Position numbers and translations under genes: made by a program
Part shown: positions 1-37,988 of the stretch, piece after piece
Numbering within the stretch: the first letter of the stretch is position 1
Layout of the letters: each line of letters starts with the position of its first letter
The notes under the pieces: generated by a model
Databases searched by the model: none
What the model saw: the letters and a program-made list of their open reading frames with translations, nothing else
Told to the model about the DNA's origin: nothing
DNA from: Cetorhinus maximus
Taxonomy: Eukaryota
Direction of reading: 5' to 3'
Assembly: GCF_964194155.1 (NCBI RefSeq)
Contig: NC_135892.1
Span: forward strand, 11,284,001 to 11,348,000
Length of the DNA stretch: 64,000 nucleotides

Positions 1-1812
1 TAAAAGCTCATGGTGTAGGTGGTATCATATTGGCATGGATAGAAGATTGGCTAGCTAATAGGAAACAGAGAGCAGGCATAAATGGGTCATTTTCTGGTTG
101 GCAAGATGTAACAAGTGTTGTGCCACAGGGGCCAGTGCTGGAGCCTCAACTTTGTACAATTTATACAAATGACTTGGATGAAGGGATCAAAGGTATGGTT
201 GCTAAATTTGCTGATGACACAAAGATAGGTAGGAAAATAAGTTGTGAAGAGGACATAACAAGACTACAAAGGGATATAGATAGGTTAAGTGAGTGGGCAA
301 AGATCTGGCAAATGGGACAGAGTTTTCCCCCCATTAGTGGGGAAGTTCAGGAGCAGGCGCACCTCTGATTGCACCGCCATTTTACGTGGGCGGGCCAATT
401 AAGACTCGCTCAGCGTGACGTCCGCCAGGAAGTGCCATGCGCTCCCTGTGCGGATGGGGGGGGATTCCCTTAGCCGAGAGTGCGCTCTTTCGCGCATGCG
501 CGCGAAAGAGTGCACTCATCTCCCTGACGCTAAGTGCTGCCTCAGGGAGATCGGCGCCAAATTCAAAAATGTTCAAAATATAAAAATAAAATTTCCCTGA
601 TATGTCCCCTCATGTGACACTGTCACATGAGTTGGGACATGTCCATCACTTTTAGTTAAACTTTTATTAAATTTTTAAAAACCTACATGAAACCTCGTCC
701 CGCCTGTGGATGAGGTTTCATGCTTCCTCTCAAGCCCGTCAGGGCTCCCGGCCTGCCCGCCAATCTTAAGGTTGGACGGGCAGGTCCTTTAACTACTGCA
801 ATTACTTTTTAAATTGCCTCAATTGGCCGTTGACAGGTCGGCGGGCACACAGCTGATTCGGCTGCGCCCCCGCCGACCTGAAAATTGAAATGACGTGGGG
901 TGACGTCGGGAGTTCCACCTGACGTTATCCCGTGTCATTTTATGCATCGGTGTGCGGGTCCCGCCCCCCACACGCCAACCGGGAAATCCTGCCCATGGAG
1001 TATAATGGGGGAAAATGTGAAATTGTCCATTTTGGCAGGAAGAATAAAAAAAATTATTTAAACAGTGAGAGATTGCAGAGCTCTGAGATGCAGAGGGATC
1101 TGGGTGTCCTCGTGCATGAATCACAAATAATTAGTATACAGGTTCAGAAAGTAATCAGCAAAGCTAGCAGAATGTTATCTTTTATTGCGAGGGGAAATGA
1201 ATACAAAAGTAGGGAGGTTATGCTTCAGTTATATAGGGCATTGGTGAGACCACATCTGAAGTGCTATGTATAGTATTGGGCTCCTTATTTAAGGAAGGGT
1301 GTAAATGTGTTGAAAACAGTTCAGAGGTTTACTAAACTAATACCTGGAAAGGGCGGGTTGTCTTATGAGGAAAGGTTGGACAGGCTAGGCTTGTATCCTC
1401 TGGAGTTTAGAAGAGTAAGAGGCAACTTGATTGAAACGTATAAGATCCTGAGGGGTCTTGACAGGGTGGATGTGGAAAGAATGTTTCCTCTTGTGGGAGA
1501 ATCTAGGACTAGGGTCACTGTTTAAAAATAAGGGGTCGCCCATTTAAGACAGAGATGAGAAGAAGTTTTTTTCTCTCAGAGGGTCGTGAGTCTTTGGAAT
1601 TCTCTTTCTCAAAAGGTGGCGGAAACAGGGTCTGAATATTTCGAAGGCAGAGGTAGGTAGATTCTTCATAAGCAAGTGGTGAAAGGTTACTGGGGGTAGG
1701 CGGGAATGTGGAGTTGAGGTTAACAATCAGATCAGCCATGATCTTATTGAATGGAGGAGCAGGCTCGAGGGGCAGAGTGGTCTACTCCTGATCCTAATTC
1801 CTACGCTCGTAT
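1..1812 (+). mobile_element. CR1-clade LINE 3' part (RT remnant and tail), interrupted by a MITE at 315-994
   Basis: ORF fragments WIEDWLANRKQR...GVPQG-like...KFADDTKIG...LQRDIDRLSEWAKIWQM, LYRALVRPHL, LSYEERLDRLGL; frameshifts and stops present. Confidence 0.93.
315..994. mobile_element. Non-autonomous DNA transposon (MITE, PIF/Harbinger-like), copy 1
   Basis: Imperfect TIRs GGACAGAGTTTTCC...GGAAATCCTGCCC; ATG duplicated at 312-314 and 995-997; removing it restores the CR1 sequence TGGCAA-ATG-GAGTATAAT. Confidence 0.85.
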
Positions 1813-2833
1813 GCAAGCTTAACTGTAAAGGGGGCCCATTTTCAACTCTATTGACTGGGTGATGTGTAGCAGAGTTGAGTTCCCACAAATTTCTATGTCA
1901 TTGATTTCACTGGGATTAAAATTTTGTGTGTTCTACAATGGGTAGGTGAACTGCTCCAACACACCAGTGCCCGGGCAGTGAAGTTGATAATAACCCATGC
2001 ACCCCAACCCCATCCCACGTTATTAATTCCCTTTCTTTGTTAAGTAACATTTCAAGGGCTCCTTTATAAAATTCATAAGACAAGGAGGTTGATTTTAACT
2101 GTAAGATGGCTGACTAGTGGAGCAAGGTGACAGGTCACCTGGCAGTACTGATGGGTGGCCTGGTACATTTTGAGGGTTGGGACTCATTATCATATGGTTA
2201 GCGGGCACCACTGTTTTAGGGTTGCCCTGTTTCTGCCCTGTAACACTGGTTAAAATCTCCCCCATGTATTTTATCTCAAAAAAGTTGACACAATCCACTG
2301 ATATCAAGTCAGGAAGGATGGGCAAGCCTCACAGAACGAAGGCATTCTGCAGCACTGATTGGCAATTCTATGAATTATTGGCTCCTTTAACTCAGGATTA
2401 TTCAACAAAGGTAGAAAGGATCTCAACACAATGATGTGGGAAACACAATTATTTCACCAGTCCTTTTATTTAGGTGATTTGCAGTTTGTTGTGGCCATTA
2501 GAATAAGAAATAACTTCAAGGGGGACATGGGGATTGAAGTTCATAATGCAATAAATAGATGAATTTGATCCACTCGTGTACCAAAGTACCTTATTGGCCA
2601 ATGATGCTAAACAGGAGGAGAAAGCTGGGAAGGGCACTAAGGCAAAAAAAAGGACAACGGTTTTGAGAAGACTTTCAATAGCAGGGAGATGCCACAGCAC
2701 AGGGAGCTCCAGAGAGTGACATCATGCTGCTACAATCAACTTCCTCTTTAGACTAATTTTTTATTCGTGCTCGACTATAAATATGTCCTTACAATGCCAT
2801 CAGGAAGATTAAAAACAAGTGTTATCATAAAAT

Positions 2834-3165
2834 GGGCAGCACGGTGGCGCAGTGGTTAGCGCTGCTGCTTCACAGCCCCAGGGACCTGGGTTCGATTTTG
2901 ACCTCGGGTGTCTGTCTGTGTGGAGTTTGCATGTTATCCCCATGTCTATGTGGGTTTTCGATGGGTGCTCTGGTTTCCTCCCACTGTCCAAGTACGTGCT
3001 GGTTAGGCGGATTGGCTATGGTAAATTGTCCCCCAGTGTGTGTGCATGTGACTGTGTGCCCTGTGATGGACTGGTGTCCTGTCCTTGGTGTACCCTGCCT
3101 AGCGGGATAGGCTCCAACTCCCCGCGACACTGAATTGGATGAAGCGGTTCTGGAAAAGTGAATGA
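2834..3165 (+). mobile_element. tRNA-derived V-SINE
   Basis: A/B boxes GGTGGCGCAGTGG / GGTTCGATT; V-domain TGTGTGGAGTTTGCATGTT...GGTTTCCTCCCAC; 13-bp TSD GTTATCATAAAAT (2821-2833) / GTTGTCATAAAAT (3166-3178). Confidence 0.9.
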
Positions 3166-3923
3166 GTTGTCATAAAATAAAAGCACACAACATATACTTG
3201 CAAATACAGTGCCAACTGAAAGTTAAAAAATATTCCCATGAGTGAAACCAGTGCTAAAACTGAAAGTGATCTGTGATGAGCTCATGACCAAAGATTGCTT
3301 TTTCTGGATGGTACATATTCTATCTGTAATTGGCTGGGAAAGTCGCTATGGGTGGTGCATGCAGCACTGCGGACCATACATGGCTCGTGCGGCATTCTTC
3401 AAAGATATTAATGGAGAATGCCACACGGACCATGTAGGTAGCAGCCTGTGGTGCTAGCTGCATCCAGGGAAACTAATGTAAGTCTGAGTGTATGTGAATG
3501 AATTTACCTCCCATAGAATTCTTAGAGGCTTGACAGGTTAGATGCTGGGAAGATGTTTCTGCTGGTTGGGGAGTCCAGAACTAAGGCTCACAGCCTCAGA
3601 ATTAGGGATTGCCATTTGGGTCAGAGATAACAAGAAATTCTTTCAAAGGGTTGTGAATTTTTGGAATTCTTTATGCCCGAGTCCAATGGATGCTTAGTCA
3701 TTGAGTATAACAAAGGGCCATAGTTTTTTGGATACTAAGGGAATCAAAGGATATGGAGATAGGGTGGGAAAGTAGAGTTGAGATAGGGTGGGAAAGGGGA
3801 GTTGAGATAGAAGATCAGCCATGATTTTACTGAATGGCAGAACAGACTCGAAGGGTTGAATGGCCTCTCCTGCTCCAATTTTGTATGTACAGATTTTGGC
3901 CTGAGTCCAACAGCGTCTTTACA

Positions 3924-4168
3924 GAAATAAAAACAGAAAATGCTGAACAAACTCAACAGGTCTGACAGCATCTGTGGAGAGAGAAACAGAGTTAACGTTT
4001 CGAGTCTGTATGCCTCTTCTTCAATTCATATACTCTGAAGAAGAGGCATACAGACTCGAAATGTTAACTCTGTTTCTCTCTCCACAGATGCTGTCAGACC
4101 TGCTGAGTTTTTACAGCACTTTTTGTTTTTATTTCAGATTTCCAGCATCCGCAGTATTTTGCTTTTAT
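3924..4168. mobile_element. Penelope-derived inverted (fold-back) terminal repeat, family 2
   Basis: About 100-bp arms are near-perfect reverse complements around ~4024-4034; each arm has a CTGAAGA...GAAA(C/T)GTT hammerhead-like core. Confidence 0.75.
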
Positions 4169-4383
4169 GCTAGCATCTTTATAGAGATTGTTTGAAATTT
4201 TCAAAGTTTTTGCTTTGCAGATAAATGAACCAATATCAGAAGCTAGAAAATTAGAGGTACATTCTTTGTATTACACTGAAATTACTGTGAGGATAAAGTT
4301 TCTTCCAAGGTATTCAACACAATAAATGTTTTTATTTAAACCTTCAAAAAATTATGGAACATATTCCAGAAGGGTGGTTGTAC

Positions 4384-4550
4384 CTCTATATTTGAAGCTA
4401 CAGAAAACGGTAACAGCTGACATTCTTTTGTCCACCTCATATTCTGGGACACACCACTGTTCATCAAAGGGAGTATCATCAAAAGGATCACATTTTGTCT
4501 TTCGAGTGAGGAGCTTAATGCACGATGATGAGAATATGTGCTTGGGATCA
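4384..4550 (-). CDS. Same gene, coding exon 5 (U-box-like C-terminal half, start of Zn finger); no stop reached
   Basis: ttgcaaag| acceptor; AG+T gives Ser, then DPKHIFSSSCIKLLTRKTKCDPFDDTPFDEQWCVPEYEVDKRMSAVTVFCSFKYR + G, |GTACAA donor; 167 nt. Confidence 0.83.
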
Positions 4551-7500
4551 CTTTGCAATAAGAAACATTGACATTAATTAGAAGGCTTGTACAATCATAA
4601 TCTATTGTGGACACAGTAGATTGGTATTGTGAGAGCGCCACTATGTATGATAAAGACACATTGATCTGGTTCAAAACTCAGGTTTTGTAGTTCCAGGAGG
4701 CACTTTAACCACAGAGGTGCTGTTCCAATAAGTTGAAACCTTCCTCAGAGTGCAACAATAACAAACAGTGCTACAGAAGAATCAGTAGCACGGTCAGAAA
4801 GTAGGCTAGCCAATCATTGCAAAGTCATGTCCTAGACTCAATTCTTAATGTGTTTTGTTTTTGTCTGTAATATCCGTGGGCCATGATCCCAGCGGTTATG
4901 GTGGGAAAGCACCTTCTGGTGCTCTCCAGCATTGATCCTGGAGTTGGCGTTGTCAGAGGAAAGGAATCTCATTTGTGTAGGGAATGGGAGTGCCCTTCAT
5001 CACTACTGATACACCTCCATAAGTCCACAGTCCACCTAGCTGGAAACTCCAGTGCTTGCCCATCACTGGAAATAGGTTTCACAGAACAAAGCACCTCTCC
5101 TGCCACCCACACTCCACCGTAAAATAATCCATTCATGTTCCTGTAGCTCCCTGAGTAAAGGAACACAATTAAGAATTCTTTAAAAAAATCTCCTTTGCTT
5201 CACGTGTCCCAGGCTGTTTGAATTGAGACCCACATCTGTCCATCTGGAACTAGGCAGGTCTGATCTCACTGAGCCCATCCAGCCTCCAAGATAATGCTAT
5301 GTCCAGAGTGGCCCCGGAAAGTGAGTGTCTCTACTCCAGCTCCACTCCTGATGACATTTGTCTTGTGAAGGGTGAGCAGAGATTCCACCCCTGAAAAATA
5401 TCCTTGAATTGACAAGAGACCTGATGCCACTGGTTCCCAGCCATACCCCAGTGGGTTCTGTTGGTCTCTCATTGGAGTTATGATTGAAGCTTAGAGGAAA
5501 CCCTCAGGAAAGTTGGCGTCATCATTACTTTCTCTTAACTTTCCCAAACTTCCTCCCTACATTTCCAAAGGTACCAATTCTTTGATTCAGTATGGCTCCG
5601 TAGATATTGGGTACACTTAAGTATCTCACTTTAAGTATGGTATGTATGCAAATCTAAAGAATAATAACAAACTGCATTTATACAGCACCATCAACATTGT
5701 TAACAACATGAATGTTACCTTTAAAATATTGACACCGACCCGCAGACTAAGATATCAAGACAGATGATCAAAAGCTTGGTCAAAGAGACAGATGTTAAGG
5801 AGAGAGCAGGAGAAATTTATGGATGAAAATCCAGAGTTTAGAGCTAAGGCAGTTGATTCAAAATTCAATCAAATTTTAACTACTTGGCTAGTACCAGATT
5901 GACTGCTTGTTTCAAACACTACCCATTCGCCTGATTTTCATTTGAAGATTTATGGCAGCAATGTGAGGGAGGGCATTCCAGACCTCACTATTAACTTAAA
6001 TAATGTTGGCCTGCTTGATTTCGATTTCCCAACTAAAAGGCAGTGCGGTGCAAGACATCCCACAGAAGAGTTCCCAGGAGAGATTTATTGGTCAACGTAT
6101 TTCAGACAACCCTAAGCAGCAACATTTTAACAAAAGTGTCCAGTGATATTCCAGTTGTTTTTTTTCTCCCCTTCTTTTCCCACCTTTTTTTAAAACAAGT
6201 CCAATCCTGGATGTAAATGGTTTAAAAGAAAACAACCGCTAAACAATGGAGTTAAAAATAGCTTACAAGTTGGTTGTTTGGATTCCACTGAAAGGGTCTA
6301 TTGCCATAATAACACATTGGCTTTGTTAGACATTTATGGTTGTGCTTCACCTGTTAAAGAGATTACTTGCCAATAAGGTACGCAAAGTCACAGATAAATC
6401 CAGTATAGGAAGACAGCAATTGACCCTTTGTTAGCACTATGTCTCCCACTAGAGCTAGCCCCTCCATTTTCCTCTTTTTTCCCTGTACCCTTTAATATGT
6501 TTCTCTTTTAGATGTTTATCCATCTCCCTCTTAAATGCTGTGATAAATTTATTTCAATATCAAATTTTCGTGAATGATTCCATAGCCTAAAGACCTTTCA
6601 TGGAAAATAATTCCTTAATGTCATCCTTATACTCATAATACTAATACTTAGTATAATATCATCCACCAATTAATGGACATAATCATCCACGCTATTTACT
6701 CTTTCAACTCTTCCATATTTTGAGAAATTTCTATTAGGTCCTCCTTAACCTTCTCTTATTGCAGTAGTTTCTCAGTTTTATTTTACTTTAAAAAGACTGC
6801 AGGGATAAATTCCATAGGCCCGGTTTAGTTTTTACTTTTTGGTGAGAGTATTTGGAAGCTCAATATATCCCGTAACATTGCATTCTGAAAATATACCTCA
6901 AGATTGGAAAACGTTTACCAAGAAAAAAGAGAACTCATCTGTCTTGCCCAAGAAAAAATGATTCAAATCCAAAACTGTAAGAAAAGCTAGAAGCATCTTT
7001 CTTGAAACGGTAGATTTACCTCTTGTGGACTAATTCTAGTTATTTTATACAAGCATTCCACTATTCAGCATTTTGTTGCTTATTTTTAATTCTGTGAATC
7101 ATTTTCAATTGTGAATAAATTTGACCAGCTGCTTCTCCTGCACAAAATGTCAATTATTCTAAGCTGACAGGGGGCGTTGGGAGAATCCTACATACTGTCC
7201 AGAAAGCAATTTACTGTGATTGTAACTAATTTAGACCTGATTGTACTAATTCAGCATGATGGTGAATCAAAAATCAGAGGCATTAGTTTGTAGGAAATGG
7301 GTCTACTTGCAGAAATTGTCACCAATTACATAAGAAAGCTAAAATAGTCAATTCTATCAAAATAGAATACATTTTTTTGTAATTTGTTGACTCTTTGCTA
7401 AAATTATTGAACACTGGAATGTCTGGCTCTAAGTAGATTGATGGTGTCCATCCTGTTCTTCCTTAATGTAGAACAGGGGACCTAACGGGGGGGGAAAAAG

Positions 7501-7563
7501 ATAAATCAATAATTTACGTTGTAGAATAAATTTAAGTCAATAAGCTCTAGAAAACTTTCTTAC

Positions 7564-7694
7564 CTTCCTTTGACAGAGACAGGCTGGTAGAAAGCCTTAA
7601 GGGATATCGGGCACTCGTATTCTAGGGCATTATTGAGCTCTGAGAAATTGATAGACCACGGAAACTGTACCCGAAAGATAACAAGCTCATACAC
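7564..7694 (-). CDS. Same gene, coding exon 4 (end of repeat 2, start of U-box-like domain)
   Basis: tttcctgaacag| acceptor, VYELVIFRVQFPWSINFSELNNALEYECPISLKAFYQPVSVKG + AG, |GTAAGA donor; 131 nt; not in the supplied ORF track. Confidence 0.85.
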
Positions 7695-8453
7695 CTGTTC
7701 AGGAAAGTTTGAGAATGATTATTTTAACGGGCTTCTGTGCTGGGCTTTAGAAGCTGACTCTATCAAGCAGTACATAAGAACATAATAGCAGCAAGAATAG
7801 ACTATATGACTCCTTGAACTTGCCCTACCATTAAATACAATGATGGGTGATGTTCTGCCTCAACTCCATTTTCCTACCTGCGTCCCATATCCTTAGATTT
7901 CCTGAAAGACTGAAAGTCTGTCCATCTCAGTCTTGAACAAAAGAGCATCCACAACCCTCTGGGGTAGATAATTCCAAAATTCCCTTAGAGTGAAGAAAGG
8001 CCTGTGGATGCATTGTGGTTGTGTACCCTTTGCCAATCTGATCTCAGACTTTTGCTAATTGTTGGTGGAGGCGACTGATGTCAAGCTCCTCACTGCTGAT
8101 CTGTACAGTGCGCTACTGGCTAAGCCCCTAAAATGCCAGATTTGATCCAACACCAGAACAACCTGTTTACACTTGTCATCATTGGTACTTTTCAAATTCC
8201 ATCCCAGGTGGTTGTCACTGCTTCCAATGGCAAACACTTTGGGTCATTTCCACTGCAGTCACCATTGCAGGAAACTTGTACAATAACTTTCATGTATATA
8301 GTGCCCTTAGCATAGAGGTGCTTCTCAGAGGCATTAATGAAACGCTATGTAAAATTAATGATTGTTTTTATAAGGTTCTGTCAAATGCCTTTAAATTGCT
8401 AGAAAATATCTAATTATAGGAAACTTTAGGTAAGCAAATTGATTGCATTGTAC

Positions 8454-8620
8454 CTGTGAGTTAGTGCCATCTGCTGATGTAACATTCACATCCACTTTGG
8501 TATGTCCTATGTTTAGGTATGTTTGATTACCGTTATTCGACCCATTAATGGTCACTTTCATACCATAGCCTGGGACAATTGGCTGAACATGTACACTGAT
8601 CATATCTAGTGGTGCTGTAC
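8454..8620 (-). CDS. Same gene, coding exon 3
   Basis: attag| acceptor; T+GT gives Cys, then TAPLDMISVHVQPIVPGYGMKVTINGSNNGNQTYLNIGHTKVDVNVTSADGTNSQ, |GTACAA donor; 167 nt; second repeat (LNIG.T...V.VTSADGT). Confidence 0.88.
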
Positions 8621-10414
8621 CTAATATATTAAGAGAATAATTTTTAATATGTGAAAATAACTTTGGCACCGCATTTAAAAACAAATTGAAAGCTCCAAAT
8701 TGCTTTAACCATGTAGCGTGCACATATATTGCAATATGCATACACATATATAAATAGAATATAACTAGATGGATTGCAAAACCTCTCCAATCCGACAGCC
8801 TAAACATATTCCATCGGACAAATGAGACACCCTACCTGCCCATGCACACGTATATAGCTCTTAGCTATAGTCTAATAGGGAACAACTTCATATTTCAGCA
8901 TCCCCCATGCAGATTAATAAACTGTAATGTAAAATGGAATTTATTAGAAAATACAGGATAGATAGCACTTTAAAAGAATATCTTCGTATCTGTTCCAAAG
9001 GAACCAAGGTTAAAAAAGGAGTTGCAACTGCATATGAATTTATTCCATGAATAATCCCCACTTACACCCCCTCCCCCACCTCAACGAGGACCTTTTGCTT
9101 ATAGTCATATTGACTTTTCAAAGCTTAGTTACAAATCATTACCAAGACTTTTCATCAGGTAGAGCGACAATAATGTGGCATTTTACTACCTTTGCATTAC
9201 ATGGTGTTTTATCAAGTTTCTATTTACATTTTCATGGCTGTCAGAAATATTGACTGTCTGCAGTTATTTACGGTTTTCTGACAGAAATTGTTTCCATCTC
9301 TCCCCTACAGCATTACCATGTTGTTCCACTAGTTGGCTGATGCTATTTTCAATGAATGTTTTAAAATCCCAGAATTTCCAGGTTGACACACGTTGATTTA
9401 CATAACTTCACAGCCAGTTTAATCCCTCACCTCTTACTGTGTGTGTAAATTTGATATTGTACTATTGTGAAATTCATAGAAGTTTTGGAGATTGTAATTT
9501 CAGTATAGGATCCATAAATTGAATTTATAAATTTAAGGTAAGTTTAGTGACATTCCTCATTAGAGTTCTAAGTTCTGTTTTTGCAATGTATTAATTTAGA
9601 TAATTTTAGAAGAAGTTTTGTTACTGCTAAATGCCAAAATAGTATTATTCCTTTGATCTGTAATCATTCCGTGCTTAAAAGCTGACTGACTTTTAAGGTT
9701 GTTGAGAAGAACTTGGAGCCATTGCTGAGTCTGGTTAAGAGACAAGTTTCTAAGAAACCAGAAAATCAGCATAGGTGAATGTTTTGCAAAAATAACTTTC
9801 CCAACGAGAAAAGACTGTTCGCTGCAAAAAAGCCATTGAAGGAGGTTCACATTTTAAGGCTATTTCTATGCTGTCTGTATACAAATATTATCATTAGCTT
9901 GATATCTGTAGTTGCTTCGTTGAATTGTTTAAACTGTACATAAATAATTCAGTCAAATTTAGCATGCACAACTCTGGGCTTGCATCTGATATTTCTATCA
10001 TCCAAAGAAGACTGCATGTATCAGAGACGTTACGCAAAATTCAGTTTAACATAATTAAAAGTCATTGTTAATCTTGGGCTATGTGACCTTTGAAGGCAGT
10101 GCCCATAAAAAGTGTCCTTCCCAAAATTCACTCACCGACAGCACTGTACAATCACTGTAAAATGGTACTTAAAGGGCCAAATTGAAAGAACACAGAAAAT
10201 GCTAAGACTCTAGCAGGGCAGACAACAGGAAAATGAAGGCACTTGAGGTAGATATCTTAATTTTACTTTTAATGAGCTTGTCGTGTATTTGTACACTGTT
10301 GTGCTAAACCTTTCCTTCTTTGTCTTCAATCCTGCTATGTAAAGAGATTGACGTGCCTACACTGGAGGAAACTTAATATACTTTTAGCATTCATCGAAGA
10401 AACTTGCCACGTAC

Positions 10415-10619
10415 ATGTATATTTAAATTCATCGATAGAAAATGCAGGATCAAGCAGCAACTTTTCAGCTACTTTCAGTCCACTTAGTAATGGAGTGTTT
10501 GAACTGAGCCTGGTTGCATCTATTTTATACCGCTTCATTGTTCCATCTTCTGCTGCAACCTCAATCTCAATTCTATTTAGACCATCTTGGAGGGTGATCG
10601 TTTTAGTACCACTTGAAGC
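10415..10619 (-). CDS. Same gene, coding exon 2
   Basis: ttcttttcctcaag| acceptor, ASSGTKTITLQDGLNRIEIEVAAEDGTMKRYKIDATRLSSNTPLLSGLKVAEKLLLDPAFSIDEFKYT + T, |GTACGT donor; 205 nt; typical 'L..G.N.I.IEV.AEDGT.K.Y.I...R' end of repeat 1. Confidence 0.88.
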
Positions 10620-10881
10620 CTTGAGGAAAAGAATAGCAATAATTTCACCAAATTACAAAATATTATGTGGGTAATTATTATTGTTACAGTCACTTGGATA
10701 TACAGTTGTTACCTGATAGACATTGGCCAGTAAGCCAAGCCCTATAGACCAGCTCCATAAATCATCGCCACAAGCAGTGAGGGTGAAAATTATTCCCAAT
10801 GATACTCAAGGAAGGAAATGTTTATGTAGGTATACAAGGGACAGTTGTATGAACAATTTCTGGTCAAGGAACCTCTCAAAA

Positions 10882-11230
10882 GTGCCAGTTTGGCTCAGTT
10901 GTGGCATTCTTCACCTCTAAGCAGATTGTGGGCTCAAGACCCACTTCTGGATTTGAACAGGAAATCTAGACTGATACTCAGGAGCAGCATTGAGGGAGTG
11001 CTACGCTGTTGGAGGTGCCCCTTTCCAGTGCACCTTTAAACTGATACCATCTATATGGATGGAAGATAAAGTTTTATGGCATCACTTGAAGATGATTCTT
11101 CCTTGTGCCTTGCACCATTCATCCTTCAGCCAATATTGCCACCTCATTTAGCTTCTTTTATTGTTTGTGGTTCCCTGCTGTGTGCAAACTGGAGATTTTG
11201 TTTCCTTACAAAGCAACATTTTAAAAGTAA
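10882..11230 (+). mobile_element. DeuSINE (SacSINE1-like), diverged
   Basis: TGGCTCAGTTG head and GAGGGAGTGCT...GGAGGTGCC body shared with other copies in the window. Confidence 0.65.
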
Positions 11231-11409
11231 TTAAATCTGTGCTATCAATATGGTTTGCATATTGAAAAACATTCTGTAAAGTAGCCTAATTGTTCCTCAG
11301 ACGCAAGTAGATGTTGCATTTTATACCTAGCTATGCGCTATCGTCAACACTGAATGCCCCCTTCCTGCCTGTAATCTGAGAGTATGTTTACATGCCAAAT
11401 TTAATGTCA

Positions 11410-11725
11410 CTCAAAGCAGCTTCTTGCCTCTGAGATCTCTGCACTCCTCTAATTCTGGCCTCTAGAGCATTTAGGATTCTAATGACTCAACCACTGGCGG
11501 CCGCGCCTTTAGCTGCTTGGCCCCTAACCTCTGGAATTCCCTCCCCAAATCTCTCTGCCTCTCTTTCCTCCTTTAAGGTGCTCCTTAAAACCTATCTCTC
11601 TGACCAAGTTTTTGGTCATCTGCCCTAATATCTGCTTATATGGCTCAGCATCAAATTTTGTTTGATAACGCTCCTGTGAAGTGACTTGGGATGTTATACT
11701 AGATTACTTTATAAATGCAAGCTGT
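11410..11725 (+). mobile_element. L2 LINE 3' tail
   Basis: CTCTGGAATTCCCTCCC...CCTTAAAACCTA...ATAAATGCAAG; same tail in reverse at ~25175-25500, 51678-52000, 54625-54990 and 61735-61945. Confidence 0.7.
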
Positions 11726-11828
11726 TTTTGTTAAATAGAACAAACAACACTGAAGCATGCCATTTGGCCCTTCTTACGTGATTTTGAAACCCATGGCAAT
11801 AATGGTTGACTATTAACTCCCCTTAGCT

Positions 11829-12128
11829 GTTTGGTGGTACAGAACTTGAGTACTGCTGAAAAAAAGAGACATGTCCAAGCTTTTTGTCTTCCACTCATCA
11901 GGACACATGCAGGAATACCAATATAAGGGGGAAAACAACAATTTATACTGTATGTGAAGGGAATGCTGATTGGTTGGCGAATGGCAAGTTCTGGAATGCC
12001 ACTTTCCAAACAATCGGCAGTCTCTTCACATACAGTATAAATTCTTGTTTTCCCCCTTATATTGGTATTCCTGCAAGTGTCCTGATGAGTGCAAGACGAA
12101 AAGCTTACACACGTCTCTTTTTTCAGCA
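11829..12128. mobile_element. Palindromic Penelope-type element, family 1
   Basis: Arms ~11854-11980 and ~12008-12128 are reverse complements; same family at 19149-21084 and 57190-57515; hammerhead cores in both arms. Confidence 0.75.
12077..12112 (+). ncRNA. Minimal type-I hammerhead ribozyme motif
   Basis: gtgtc-CTGATGA-gtgcaagac-GAAA-agct-TA-cacac; core intact, first stem-I pair mismatched. Confidence 0.6.
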
Positions 12129-12341
12129 ATTAACTCCTCTCTGAAATGGCCTAGCAAGCTACTTAGTTGTATTCAAGAAAGTGGCTCACCACCACTTTTT
12201 CAAGGGGCAATTAGCGAATTGCCAGCAATGCTCACATCCCGTGAATGAATAAATAATAAAAAAAATTGTCATCTGTGCAGGTGCCTAAGCTTGAATCGTA
12301 TGTCCCTGATGTTGGATAAAGGACTGCTGTCACCCCAGTGC

Positions 12342-12702
12342 ATCAGCTGTGGTTCCACGGATAGCACTCTCTCCTCTGAGTCAGAAGGCTGTGGTTTGAA
12401 GTCCCATTGTAGACTTAAGCACAAAAATCTATGTTGACACTCCAGTGCAATACTGAGGGAGTGCTGCATTGTTGGAAGTGCTGTTGTTTGGATGAGACAT
12501 TAAACTGACGCTCTCTCAGATAGATGCAACAGATCCTGTGGCACATTTTTGAAGAAGAGCTGGGGAGTTCTTCCCAGTGTTCAGGGTCAATATTTATCCC
12601 TCAATCAGCATTATTAAAAAACAGCTTAACTAGACATGACCACATTGCCATTTGTGGGAATTTGCATGCGCAACTTGGCGGCCCTGTTTCATACACTACA
12701 AC
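12342..12702 (+). mobile_element. DeuSINE (SacSINE1-like)
   Basis: TAGCACTCT..CCTCTGAGTCAGAAGG head; GAAGAAGAGC.GGGGAGTTC; AATATTTATCCCTCAATCA. Confidence 0.75.
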
Positions 12703-13387
12703 ATGCAGGAGCACAGAAACAGAGGAGGCCATTTAGCCCCTCAATCCTGTTCCACCATTCAATTAGATCATGGTGGATCGATGACCTAACTCCATATACC
12801 ATATATCTCTCTTCACATACTGTCTCACTCTTTAAATCCACTGTCATCACTCCACTCGTCAAAAAAAAGCCTTGACACAACCATCCTTATAGACCACCAC
12901 CCCATCTCCAATCTGTCCAAGTCCTTGAACATGTCATTAATACAAAAGCAGAATACTGCAGATGCTGGAAATCTGCAATAAAAACAGAAAATCAGGTGGA
13001 TGACCCTTCATCAGAACACAAATCAGATCTTTGTGACTGTGACAAAGTTAAACTTTCTTTTGCCCCTCCCTATTTCTGTAATCTCCTTCAACTCCACAGA
13101 CCTTCGAGATATCCGCACTTGTCTAATTCTAGCCTCTTGAGCATCCCCACTTTTAATTGCTCCACCGTTGGTCATTGTGCATTCAGCTGTATTGGCGCCA
13201 AGCCTATAGAGTTCCTTCTCTAAACTTCACAGTCTCTCCGCCTCTCTCATTGAGCAAGCTTTTGGCCAACTGCCCTAATATCACCTCATGCAGCTCAGTC
13301 AAATTTTATTTTATAATGTTGTGAAGCATCTTAGGACATTTATTACATTAAAGGTGCAATATAAATACAAGTTGTTTCTGTTGTTTT

Positions 13388-13891
13388 ACCCACCTTTGCC
13401 CATTTTCCTTAATGTCTTTGGTTAACAAAAAAATTATCGATCACAGATTTAAAATCAATTTGTATTTGCAGAAGACAGTTCAAAACTTCTACCACCCTTT
13501 GCATATAGAAGTGTTTCCTAACTTCACTCCTGAAAGGCCTGGCTTGAATTTTTAGACTATTCCCCCTAGTCATGGACATCCCAACCAGCAGAAATAGTTT
13601 CCCTCTATTTACCCTGGATAGAGCCTCAGTTTAATGTCTCTATTTACCCTATCAGTTCCCCTTAAAAACTTTGTTTAAATCACACCTTAGCCTTCTAAAT
13701 TTCAGGGAATACAACATTAGTCTGTGTAATCTCTCCTCATTATTTAACTCTTAGGAGTTTTAAGTTTCATTCGATAAATCTACACTGCACTCCCTCCAAG
13801 GTCAATATATCCTTTCTGAAGTGCGGTGCCCAGGAGTGTTCACAGTACACCAGGTGTGGTCTAACAAGGGTTTTGTATAGCTGAAGCATGG
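13388..13891 (-). mobile_element. CR1 LINE fragment
   Basis: Reverse complement of the CR1 RT 3' region (TACACTGCACTCCCTCCAAGGTCAATATATCC...GGTGCCCAG). Confidence 0.75.
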
Positions 13892-14591
13892 CTTCTTCTG
13901 TAGTCCAAGAACCTAGGCAATGGTGGATAGGTTCCTGGTAAGCAAGGGGGTGATAGGTTATCGGGGGTAGATGGGATGCAGATTTCAGGTTACTATCAGA
14001 TCAGCCATGATCTTGCTAAATGGCAGAGCAGACTTGAGGGGCTGAATGGACTACTTCTGCCCCTTGTTCGTATATCTAGAGGACTACAGTATAAACCATG
14101 CTTCAGCTACACAAAACGCTTGTTAGACCATACCTGGTGCACTGTATAGATAAAGACCAGCACTCCATTAGCCTTTTTGATTATTTTCTCTACCTGTTCA
14201 TGACATTTTGATGATCTGTGTACTTGAACCCTTAAGTCTCTCTGGGCCGCCACTATAGTAAAAACTGGGAATTGACTTGTATACATTAACATGAAACTCT
14301 AGTTTGGACCAGTACCAGTCATTTCCAAAGATTTACAGTTTTTTCCTTCTCATGTAGAAAGTATCCTGTCCTATCCTTTTCAGGTTCAAAGTGGATGTTT
14401 TGGAAATCCATTTGCCACAGTTTTGTCAATCCATTCAATCTATCAATATATCTTTATAATGTTGCTTTTCCATCTACTCTGCTTATAACACGACTTATCT
14501 TTGTGTTAGTGACACAAAGTCACTAGGATATACATCTTTCTATCACAATCCACAATCTATTTATTAATGGTTAATAAATAGGTCAAGTCCT

Positions 14592-16210
14592 GTCAGCTGT
14601 GGCTCAGTTGGTAGCATTCTTTCTCTGCACACCCCACCAGCTGTGGGTTCAGAGACCAGAGGACAAAAATATACACTGACATTCCTGTGCAGTAGCCGGG
14701 GGTGCTGTCAGGGGGTGCCATCTTCAGATGATTACAAAAATAGGTGGGAAGGCAAGTGGTGAGGATGACACAAGGAGTCTACAGAGGGATAAAGACAGAT
14801 TAAGTGAGTGGGCAAAAACTTGGCAGATGGAATATAATATGGGAAAATGTGAGGTTTTGCACTTTGGCAGGAGGAATAGATGAGTTGAATATTATTTAAA
14901 TGGAGAAAGACTGCAGAAGGCTCCAGCATAGAGGGATTTAGGAGTCCTTGTGCATGAATCCCAAAAAGCTAGCATACAAGTTCAACAGGTAATAGGGAAG
15001 GCAAATGAAATATTGGCCTTTATTTCAAAGGGGATGGAGTACAAAAATTGGGAAGCCTTGCTAAAACTACACAAGGCCTAATTAGACCACACATAGAATA
15101 CTGTGAACAATTTTGGTCCCCTTATCTAAGGAAAGATATACTGGCATTGGAGGCAGTTCAGAGAAGGTTCACTAGGTTGATCCGGGTATGGAGGGATTTT
15201 CTTATGAGGAGAGGTTGAGTGGGTTGGGCCTGTACTCGTTGGGGTTTAGAAGAATGAGAGACAACCTTATTGAAACATATAAGGTTTTTAGGGGGCTTGA
15301 CAGGGTAAATGCTGAGAGGTTGTTTCCCCTTGTAGGAGAGTCTAGGACCAGAGTGCATAATCCTCAGAGTAAGGAGGCGCCCATTTAAAACAGAGATGAG
15401 GAGGAATTTCTTCTCTCAGAGGGTAGTCAATCTGTGGAATTATTTACCGCAGAGGGCTGTAGAGGCTGGGTTGTTAAGTATTTTCAAGGCTGAGATAGAC
15501 AGATTTTTAATCAGTAAGGGAATCAAGGGTTATGGGGGCAAGGCAGGAAAGTGGAGTTGAGGATTATCAGCCATGATCTCATTGAATGGCAGAGCAGACT
15601 CGATGGGCCAAAAGGCCTACTTCTGCTCCTACGTCTTGAGAGGTTAAACTGAAAAAAAAACTAAAAGAACCCATGGCACTACTTTGAGGGAGAGCAGGGG
15701 AGTTATCCCTGGTGTCCAAATCAATACTTATCCCTTAATCAACGTCACTAGAAACAGTTTTCTCCTCCTTCAGGTATCATGCCCTAAAAGGCCATTGGCA
15801 ACCACTGGATTGATCTATGATTATGCTTGGCAAAGTGCTGCAGTGGTTTGCTGTTGCATTCTGCAGTATGGCTGATCAGGAAACTCTTCCACTCTTACTA
15901 CTTGTCATCAGGTGTATTGGAAGGACTTACAGCTGATAACCAACTTGCTTGGCCACACTGTGGACACACTTTCCACGGCCATCAAGTCCTGGAATGGGAC
16001 TTGAACGCAGTGCTTGGGACGCTACCCACTGCGCCACCAGACCTCCTAAAAACAGATTAGGTGGGACAATATCACATTGCTGTTTGCGGGAGCTGGCTGT
16101 GCGCGATTGGGCTGCAGAGTTTCCTACATTGTGCACTTCAAAAAGTGAACTTGATTGGCTTTGGGACGCCCTGGGGTGGTGATGAAGGCGCTGTACAAGC
16201 GCAGGTTTTC
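14592..16210 (+). mobile_element. DeuSINE split by a CR1 insertion and a second insert
   Basis: Head ~14592-14731, resumes GAGAGGTTAAACTG at ~15639, tail ~16055-16210. Confidence 0.6.
14732..15638 (+). mobile_element. CR1 LINE 3' part
   Basis: LQRD.DRLSEWAKTWQM and [19 protein letters not shown] fragments; tail GATCTCATTGAATGGCAGAGCAGACTCGATGGGCC. Confidence 0.92.
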
Positions 16211-16318
16211 TCCCTCTTTCTGTGTATATATATATATATATATATATGTGTGAGCACAGTTGCAGAGGTTCTTTTCTCTCTCTGTGTCTGTGTGTGGCTG
16301 CACAGGGCTGACACTCAC

Positions 16319-16480
16319 AATGATTTGGTAAGAGGCGCGGTTGTCGCTGGTCACCGGGTGGACGGTCAGACTGAGCACGTCGCTGCCCAGTATCATTTTG
16401 TAATTGAGGATGGTGGAGTTGAAGGGAGGCTCCAGTGTCCCGGGAGAGACCATCAGCTTCTTTAGGTTGCAGTCGTCCAT
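16319..16480 (-). CDS. Uncharacterised cadherin-like beta-sandwich/U-box-like protein, coding exon 1
   Basis: gcgATGG start, 54 codons MDDCNLKKLMVSPGTLEPPFNSTILNYKMILGSDVLSLTVHPVTSDNRASYQII, |GTGAGT donor, phase 0; L.V..G.L.P.F....NY pattern of cadherin-like beta-sandwich. Confidence 0.85.
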
Positions 16481-17260
16481 CGCCTTCCCTTTACCAGTCT
16501 CTCTCTCTGAGCGGTGACCCTCTTTTTGTTGTCCTGCCTCCTCTCACTCAGCCGCCCAACCTCAACATGTCGCCGCTCCCATGGCAACCGATGCCTTCCA
16601 CAAACACCGGGGCGAGGGCCCGGGATGATTCCCTCCTCCCCCAAACGCCTTTTATTCACAACCCACAGAATCAAGCGATCACCCCCCCCCCCCTCAATTT
16701 CAAAAGCATTGGAGGGCGGTGGGTTTATTGATTTTTTTTCCCCACTCTAACGGACGGCAGCCGCCTCCTCCTCCCGCCGGACTGGACTACAACTCCCGGC
16801 AACCCCTGCGCGCTATGCACATGCGCACTGCCGAGCCGCTATGCTAAAACCGCTCATATTCGATTTGTCCACCACTCGATGCAAACATGTCGGATTATCC
16901 TTCGTATGGAACCGTTATATTTATTTTGTAAGGCTCTGGTCCTAATTTGAAACCTTGCCATTTTCCTCACGTGCCAACATGACGGCAACGACCGAGCGCA
17001 TGCGCATTTAGTGGAGTTGCATCCACATTTCTAATATTCGATTATTTTATGACGCTGAACACATATATTTAATCCTACGAAGTGTTAGCATGCTAGGTTT
17101 AATCTTTTTTCCGTCTCTTCTAATTTGAGTATTTACCAACCGTGACCTGAAATGACTACAGGTCCCAGCATGCGCTGGGAGTGCTGCACATGCGCAGTCA
17201 GGGGGCTGACTCGGTAGTGACCCTGATTCCCTTCTCCTTCCGCCGGTTGCTGGGTGCAAA
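16481..17260. promoter_or_regulatory. CpG-rich bidirectional promoter and 5' UTRs
   Basis: Lies between divergent ATGs. ZNF143/THAP11-type ACTACAnnTCCC at 16786-16805 and 17155-17173; NRF1-type (T/G)GC(A/G)CATGCGCA at 16816-16827, 16996-17006, 17185-17196; YY1-type AAAATGGCG at 17258-17266; RFX X-box-like GCTCCCATGGCAAC at 16575-16588. Confidence 0.85.
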
Positions 17261-17401
17261 ATGGCGAGCCCCGAGCCTTTAAATGAAGAATATCCGACAG
17301 AAATCCACGAGTTCTTGGTGGGGTTCGAGGAGTCACTGAAGTCTGCCGATGGAACATTGAGGACCCTGATGTCGGTGCCCAGGAGTGAGTTGCTCCAGAA
17401 G
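17261..17401 (+). CDS. C1D: C1D (nuclear exosome cofactor, Rrp47 homolog), coding exon 1
   Basis: ATG to AAG|GTAACC donor, 47 codons [47 protein letters not shown]; resembles human C1D N-terminus (NEDYPVEIHEYL...MMSVSRNELLQK) from memory; phase 0. Confidence 0.96.
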
Positions 17402-17467
17402 GTAACCAACCCTTTGGTCCTCCACAATGGCCCAGCATTTACCGCCCTGACTAGCTTCTTGGACCTA

Positions 17468-17810
17468 GGGTTGCCAACTCTCCAGGATTGGCCTGGAGTC
17501 TCTAGGAATTGAAGATCAGTCTCCATGGACACTGCTAGCATCGGGACCTTAAAAAATATTGTTTTGATTTTGTAACATTCTTTGAACGTTTCCCTTTACC
17601 AGATGTAAAAACACTGAAAATGTGAGGAAAAGGCTTTTTGGCTGACAGTCAAGCATTATCCCATTGGATAATGAGTCTTTTTGCTTTCTAATTTGTGCAG
17701 GAAGGTAGTGTGTTACAAGGATGGATGTGTTGGCTGACTAGTGGCTGGAGTGTGGGGGCAAGTCATGTGGTGAAACCTCCAGGAATGCATTTAATCACAG
17801 TTGGCAACCC
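17468..17810. mobile_element. MITE with GGGTTGCCAACT TIRs in C1D intron 1
   Basis: TA|GGGTTGCCAACT...AGTTGGCAACCC|TA; about 340 bp; superfamily not assigned. Confidence 0.8.
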
Positions 17811-28177: not shown

Positions 28178-28244
28178 TTGGACCCTCTTGAGCAAGCCAA
28201 GCTGGATTTAGCCTCTGCTTATGCATTGAATTCAATGTTTTGGA
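28178..28244 (+). CDS. C1D: C1D coding exon 2
   Basis: ttttcag| acceptor, [22 protein letters not shown] + 1 nt, |gtaagt donor; 67 nt. Confidence 0.97.
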
Positions 28245-37665: not shown

Positions 37666-37827
37666 GAGCGGATAAGGACCTACATGAACAAAGTGAAAGA
37701 GCTAACGGACCGCCAGAAGGCATCGCGACTGGACAAGGGAGCAGCATCGCGAATTGTTCGGAATGCATTGTGGGAGGCAAAGCCAGAAGGAAGGTCAAAA
37801 ATACCATCCCAATCGTCACATCATTGA
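37666..37827 (+). CDS. C1D: C1D coding exon 4 (terminal)
   Basis: tgtag| acceptor, [53 protein letters not shown] then TGA; spliced total 141 aa. Confidence 0.95.
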
Positions 37828-37988
37828 AAAAGCAAAGAAAATTCAGTATTGTAAGAACAAACGAGGAGTAACTTTGACAAGAGCTTTCCTTGTCACGCCA
37901 CCGGGTGTCAGTAATGTTTAACATTATAGTTTGTTTTTATTTTTTGTTTTAAAAAAAAGTTGCACATGAATTTTTATTTTTCTTCCCA

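Follow-up and report, generated by a model that had tools for sequence, protein, structure and literature searches.

We analysed a window of 64,000 nucleotides of the Cetorhinus maximus genome (contig NC_135892.1, positions 11284001-11348000; all contig coordinates below are forward-strand positions), in which a preliminary description had placed an unnamed gene at window positions 4384..16480. The five exons described there (162, 205, 167, 131 and 167 nt) are present on the minus strand, with GT-AG borders at every intron among them and agreeing splice phases (cumulatively 0/1/0/2/1), and the spliced frame of 277 amino acids (aa) stays open. These exons make up just the gene's first quarter, however. 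Exon 5 ends in a donor site and the frame runs on past position 4384, so that the extent proposed was too short. Extension beyond base 1 of the window, as that description had advised, yielded 15 further exons and a complete predicted protein of 1,096 aa. The features of this gene are as follows, the first eight lines being in window positions.

16319..16480, minus strand: exon 1, residues 1-54, with the start codon at 16480 and the first half of Cadherin-like sandwich 1
10415..10619, minus strand: exon 2, residues 55-122, end of sandwich 1 and start of sandwich 2 (PF12733, 26.6 bits, over the cut-off)
8454..8620, minus strand: exon 3, residues 123-178, sandwich 2 (PF12733, 27.4 bits, over the cut-off)
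7564..7694, minus strand: exon 4, residues 179-221, final strand of sandwich 2, then the first loop of a RING/U-box-like domain
7613-7611, minus strand: codon of C206 in exon 4, the second ligand position being Ser209
4384..4550, minus strand: exon 5, residues 222-277, completing the RING/U-box-like domain (down to 4418) and adding the linker helix plus the first Cys of zinc finger 1
4402-4400, minus strand: codon of C272, the first Cys of zinc finger 1, in exon 5
1..4383, continuing past base 1, minus strand: intron 5
Contig 11281118-11237811, outside the window, minus strand: exons 6-20, residues 278-1096, rest of zinc finger 1, tetratricopeptide repeat (TPR) solenoid, basic linker, TPR-like tail and stop

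To find the exons beyond the window, the catshark ortholog P0014 served as tBLASTn query for the window plus 120 kb of the DNA next to it, and colinear exons were found out to ~46 kb past base 1. With the chosen splice sites, they give a model of 20 exons and 3,291 nt with one terminal stop, whose product is 82% identical to P0014 across its full length. Eighteen of the introns are GT-AG, and intron 8 is GC-AG, with its GC donor at contig 11273527 (L003:9525-9527). Shark orthologs have the exon peptides in colinear order, with 63-86% identity for each exon, and the five-exon frame is thus not due to chance. The exon-5 peptide is unique, with one match in the genome. About 140 relatives were found in all, of which 71 near-full-length sequences form alignment A1, and 37 hand-picked for spread form alignment A2, the source of all counts out of 37 below. 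The N-terminus MD[DN][CA]xL is common to 34 of these 37.

The only database protein identical to window exon 5 is a 163-aa NCBI model from Cetorhinus maximus, LOC144690019, which lacks exons 2-3 and continues past the donor of exon 5. Together with the GC donor of intron 8, this model might suggest that the locus is broken in this species or yields a short product only. We find this most improbable, as all 20 exons are in frame over the 1,096 residues, the GC donor is unchanged in the DNA of a second organism, whose four indels in the intron-8 stretch are all intronic, and the junction length is the same in four other chondrichthyan proteins. The 20-exon model corrects the truncated public one. 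In two shark protein models, the intron-8 junction has 2-3 additional residues, which points to a problem of annotation there too. Full-length relatives were located on assembled contigs of 3.5-5.2 kb and in a sponge transcript open reading frame, as expected from spliced mRNA, which lends indirect support from other species. One RNA run of presumed relevance, which has no bearing on expression, showed no splice joints over bases 3000-17600, nothing on exon 8 and one unspliced 156-nt contig across the exon 2/intron 2 border. Intron 11 contains, ~460 nt downstream of the real exon 11, a partial copy of that exon, which comprises 32 codons at 91% identity and includes an in-frame stop (contig ~11264778-11264683, L003).

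For the domain analyses, fold models of catshark orthologs stood in for the window protein, namely P0014 (mean predicted local distance difference test (pLDDT) 83.7, predicted template modelling score 0.76) and residues 1-306 of P0004 (pLDDT 93.2). The domain order is two Cadherin-like sandwiches, RING-like domain, zinc finger, TPR solenoid, basic disordered linker and conserved TPR-like tail. The beta-sandwiches correspond to residues 3-93 and 96-187 of the models. Their presence had been proposed from the sequence, and exons 2 and 3 each exceed the Pfam cut-off on their own; PF12733 is found in all 37 aligned members (in P0014 at 82.7 bits over two stretches), as are TPRs. Residues 345-812 and 926-1085 form TPR-like helices with generic fold matches only, and searches with the whole model retrieved no specific relative beyond generic TPR solenoids. 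The three-TPR unit at residues 347-579 superposes on TPR1 of HOP (Z 10.6). The linker (residues 843-922) is disordered and basic in 37/37 relatives (net +7 to +33), and often RG-rich. At its start, exon 16 (contig 11248274-11248025) codes for a poly-Gln tract of ~15 residues. No MATH domain was detected in the Pfam scans, residues 345-1085 being helical and TPR-like or disordered. In the ESM Atlas, P0014 matched only its own family cluster (73 members, eukaryotic), and the N-terminal part of the sponge protein gave no usable match.

The absence of a signal peptide, also noted in the preliminary description, was borne out by hydropathy for all 37 relatives, in which neither a signal peptide nor a membrane helix nor other hydrophobic segments were detected. 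Likewise, none of the 37 has the calcium motifs of cadherins (LDRE, DxNDN). A role in cadherin-like adhesion was rejected on these grounds.

A whole-length search, in which 8,000 candidates of matching length were scored, gave 115 matches, 114 of them family members. They come from cartilaginous and bony fish, the coelacanth, amphibians (21 matches), a tunicate, molluscs and a nemertean. A C-terminal search (613 candidates scored, 45 matches) added corals, sponges, amphioxus and a hemichordate. There was no amniote, arthropod or nematode among the 111 named whole-length matches, nor among the 45 C-terminal ones. Of these gaps only that in amniotes is persuasive, because limited numbers of candidates were scored and no match bears the name of some other groups in which relatives would be expected, such as echinoderms and annelids. 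An apparent loss in amniotes, for which no reptile, bird or mammal relative was found, agrees with the loss in some lineages that had been suspected. The relatives are all named ‘uncharacterized’ or ‘hypothetical’, two evident mislabels aside, and the view that the gene matches none already characterized holds. In open full text, which does not cover supplements and subscription papers, we found no paper on the family, including by the LOC identifiers of six orthologs, and none joining ‘cadherin-like beta sandwich’ with ‘U-box’ or ‘tetratricopeptide’. This is an unstudied, single-copy gene for a protein of ~1,100 residues, conserved from sponges to frogs and missed by human-centred catalogues of ubiquitin ligases (E3s). 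It is tractable in Xenopus or fish.

In the ortholog model, residues 188-297 best match the RING and first zinc finger of TRAF6 (Z 12.2, root-mean-square deviation 1.9 A over 101 residues, 24% identity; Foldseek was also run). LNX2, TRAF2/5 and RAG1 come next, and the U-boxes lie at Z 7.3-8.1 (UBE4A and Ufd2 8.1, CHIP 7.6). TRAF6 was also reached by sequence-only search (E 9e-4) and by profile (E 7e-4, with RNF125 alongside). With the Pfam U-box profile (PF04564), P0002 scores 13.3 bits for a cut-off of 21.4, and this family is absent among the 25 listed for the 37 aligned members. The domain had been proposed to be a U-box. The ortholog model agrees as to a RING/U-box fold, but the Pfam profile does not support the assignment. 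The TRAF-type finger predicted to follow is present, with C272, C279, H291 and C295.

The likeness to TRAF6, and also to TRAF2/5, LNX2 and RNF125, resides in this module, as the RING-like domain, the linker helix and the C-C-H-C finger superpose together on TRAF6. The first RING loop differs from that of TRAF6 by a single Cys-to-Ser change. Unlike in TRAF6, the RING zinc ligands of the family are wholly or half lost, the coiled coil and TRAF/MATH domain found at the C-terminus of TRAFs are replaced by TPR-like helices, and TRAFs have no N-terminal sandwiches. With U-box E3s (CHIP/STUB1, UBE4A/UBE4B/Ufd2 and plant PUBs), the protein shares a predicted zinc-less RING fold and a D-P-hydrophobic motif at the last loop, but it is below the Pfam U-box cut-off, nearer to TRAF6 than to any U-box and without an Arg linchpin. 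CHIP also combines a U-box with TPRs, in the reverse order, and has an Hsp70/90 carboxylate clamp that is lacking here. The two-carboxylate clamp is formed by K, N, N, K and R; the corresponding positions of the TPR unit are variable or His, and CHIP-like chaperone coupling was rejected. In its layout of catalytic module and binding solenoid on a single chain the protein is thus like TRAF6 and CHIP, but a member of neither group. U-boxes are regarded as RINGs in which zinc is replaced by hydrogen bonds. For the shark domain, descent from a TRAF6-type RING whose zinc ligands were lost within the family is a better reading than membership in one of the known U-box families. As it is nearest to TRAF6 and has zinc-binding relatives in the same family, its origin is probably independent of U-boxes.

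In Cetorhinus maximus, the eight cross-brace positions are C206, S209, D223, H226, S229, C232, D243 and D246, and thus not C3HC4. The site II cysteines (ligands 3, 7 and 8) are found in none of the 37 relatives, being replaced mostly by D, D/N and D/N/S/T, and the ligand 4 His is kept in 24. Site I (C206, C209, C229, C232) is complete in 10/37, namely three sponges, two corals, Saccoglossus and four others. All vertebrates, amphioxus, tunicates and spiralians belong to the remaining 27, in which this site is broken. These 27, the shark among them, have lost both zinc sites and are U-box-like. Judging from the residues present, D223/H226/D243/D246 could provide a substitute metal site in the shark-type domain.

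One full-length relative, P0262 (1,063 aa, 29-34% identical end to end), has all eight C3HC4 ligands and further fingers, and its RING passes the PF00097 cut-off (22.4 bits versus 21). The domain is therefore a true RING derivative. On an unrooted quick tree built without the trait columns, P0262 forms a long branch among coral-like rows, and Saccoglossus pairs (97) with a protein lacking site I, which points to more than one loss of that site or to a single regain. The first tree, with the trait columns included, needs one change of site I, and the trees without them at least two. A deuterostome clade was marginally rejected on a quick tree (approximately unbiased test, p-AU 0.03). The order full, half, none would be the simplest reading of the ligand states and only that, because the position of P0262 is unrooted and site I was lost repeatedly or regained. 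The domain types themselves are all known; what is new is their combination, the half-RING with site I only and the RING-to-U-box series within one family. A direct test of U-box origin needs living RING/U-box intermediates from a single orthologous family. Here, complete, half and ligand-less domains occur in one and the same protein setting, so that their stability, zinc content and activation of E2 (ubiquitin-conjugating enzyme) can be measured against each other.

On the basis of these models, we consider it an even call that the protein is an intracellular ubiquitin ligase, active or conditionally active, with a TRAF6-type RING stripped of its zinc ligands and a fold kept in the manner of U-boxes. 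Of the original proposal of an intracellular ligase, the fold and the lack of a signal peptide stand, whereas ligase activity is no more than plausible, as the linchpin is acidic in the shark protein and none of the 37 relatives has Arg there. The RING-like domain would dock E2~ubiquitin through a conserved hydrophobic face (V/I208, L210, L236, P244). From sponge to frog, position 208 is V, I, M or F in 37/37 relatives, L210 is present in 33, P244 in 37 and K241 in 36. In support of a ligase, the domain is also conserved to the degree of the TPRs (mean top-residue frequency 0.59 versus 0.56-0.57). Without an Arg linchpin, ubiquitin transfer would be activated weakly or by another route, for which the candidates are K241 (near-invariant), an E2 insensitive to the linchpin, and Lys/Arg 263 of the linker helix, working in trans in the way known from TRAF6 dimers. 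In zebrafish TRAF6, as reported in part of PMC5702613, dimers supply Arg126 of the linker helix and Arg147 of zinc finger 1 in trans. Position 263, which aligns with Arg126, is K/R in 49/71 sequences of A1 and 25/37 of A2. A homodimer prediction for residues 188-302 of P0004, run with the alignment left unused, scored 0.00 and speaks neither for nor against such dimers. According to sections of PMC7667886, about half of yeast and human RINGs have no Arg linchpin and some E2s are linchpin-insensitive.

The TPR solenoid and the conserved tail may bind a basic substrate or partner. Acidic residues line their grooves, with E414, E415 and E972 invariant and D968 present in 36/37. As the grooves are acidic, rather than basic like the Hsp70/90 clamp, the partner is more probably a basic ligand than a chaperone tail. 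The sandwiches, proposed earlier as the substrate-binding part, would be a second binding platform or a spacer; the TPR solenoid, basic linker and conserved tail are at least as good a candidate for this role.

Several observations weigh against an active ligase. The linchpin position, 247, is E in 20 relatives, G in 10, D in 5, N and K in one each and R in none; it is thus acidic in 25/37, and Asp in Cetorhinus maximus. A Glu linchpin gave near-background activity for Hrd1/Doa10 with Ubc7 in the same parts of PMC7667886, and excerpts of PMC12326332 report that it severely disrupted the binding of RNF38 to E2 and E2~Ub. Of the two activating Arg positions of TRAF6, only one is basic in this family, as that of Arg147 is Ser286 here, mostly Ser elsewhere and R in 1/71. 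Zinc finger 1 is intact in 18/37 relatives and the second finger in 8/37, and the U-box profile is not passed. Mean top-residue frequency is highest in the tail (0.69) and in sandwich 1 (0.63) rather than in the RING-like domain.

There is a second possibility, which we regard as serious though somewhat doubtful: a pseudo-ligase scaffold. An ancestral active RING E3 would have become, in most bilaterians, a TPR scaffold in which the zinc-less domain has ceased to drive ubiquitin transfer and has a structural or partner-binding function, perhaps as the inactive member of a RING heterodimer. The acidic linchpin, the progressive loss of site II, site I, zinc finger 1 and the second finger across lineages, the peaks of conservation in the tail and sandwich 1, and the apparent dispensability of the gene in amniotes are all in line with such a scaffold. 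Nevertheless, the E2-facing hydrophobic residues and P244 are near-invariant over the whole animal range, and the ligands were lost through conservative C-to-S/T and C-to-D/N swaps, which are typical of U-boxes, and not through decay.

It is highly unlikely that the protein is an E3 for SUMO or another ubiquitin-like protein, with a one- or no-zinc RING of the SP-RING type (Siz/PIAS, Nse2) working with UBC9 or the E2 of another ubiquitin-like modifier. Passages of PMC12751080 describe SP-RINGs as binding one zinc only, a precedent for a one-zinc RING, and weak matches to Pfam zf-Nse were obtained (E 0.003-0.05), below the cut-off (17.7 bits versus 27). The best folds, however, are ubiquitin E3s of the TRAF6 type, and no SP-RING is among the best 50 fold matches listed. 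Moreover, SP-RINGs keep the other zinc site, whereas the sponge and coral half-RINGs of this family keep site I and lose site II. Lastly, a ciliary role was considered given the TPRs, the basic Pro/Ala/Lys linker, the aquatic range and a neighbouring WD40 gene that we take to be WDR92/DNAAF10, but amniotes have motile cilia.

Over ~190 aa, identity between the sandwich pair and the tandem repeats of giant surface proteins of bacterial type (P0197-P0338) is 33-39%, more than between the two copies themselves (23% over 69 aa). Anchors of the type IX or S-layer kind (CHU_C or SLH) were detected in six of ten giant repeat proteins scanned. The likeness to such type IX-secreted or S-layer proteins is confined to the PF12733 repeats, which also occur in CPED1; here there are two copies only, N-terminal, with no signal peptide and fused to a RING module. 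Early capture of the sandwiches from bacteria by ancient transfer is a possible lead suggested by these identities. In a profile search of 1.84 billion representatives, multi-repeat sandwich proteins made up 137 of the 150 matches listed, and this crowding means that the search sets no bound on the family outside animals.

Taken jointly, these data could tentatively be read, in a scenario that we think unlikely as a whole, as a third, independent route from RING to U-box within one pan-animal family. A TRAF6-type two-zinc RING, as in P0262, would have led to a stable, previously undescribed half-RING with site I only in sponges, corals and the hemichordate, and then to a zinc-free U-box in most bilaterians that would still be an active E3 without an Arg linchpin. 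The sandwiches would stem from a bacterial surface protein, and the amniote ancestor would have lost the gene by deletion from its place between DNAAF10 and C1D.

The gene order at the locus is calcineurin B (plus strand), PNO1 (minus), the WD40 gene (plus), the 20-exon gene (minus) and C1D (plus), the last name being our presumption beyond a Pfam match. The remaining window features are the following.

17261..17401, plus strand: first coding exon of C1D, the head-to-head neighbour
Near 28178-28243 and 37670-37830, plus strand: further C1D exons, the second exon matching Pfam Sas10/Utp3/C1D at E 0.009
16481..17260: spacer of 780 bp between the two start codons, a CpG island
16786-16797 and 17155-17166: ACTACANNTCCC, in the spacer
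16817-16826, 16996-17005 and 17186-17195: GCRCATGCGC, a palindrome resembling the NRF1 consensus, in the spacer

The human order is presumably the same, minus the 20-exon gene. In portions of PMC13499478 and PMC3436827, the four neighbours of the gene appear together in lists for chicken and human, though such lists may omit unnamed genes. A Notothenia ortholog, P0101, is labelled ‘RNA-binding protein PNO1’, probably a name borrowed from a neighbour and a hint that the synteny extends to teleosts.

The spacer has an observed/expected CpG ratio of 0.91, compared with 0.30 for bases 1-16000. ACTACANNTCCC occurs twice in it versus 0.06 times in shuffled sequences, and GCRCATGCGC gives six strand-matches versus 0.04. 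The spacer is a likely bidirectional, broadly active promoter, predicted to be common to the 20-exon gene and C1D. Both ACTACANNTCCC and NRF1 motifs are over-represented in bidirectional promoters according to part of PMC3082894.

Fragments resembling LINEs are frequent within the introns in the window. An open stretch of 696 residues at L013:6387-8474 (minus strand) is probably derived from a retroelement.

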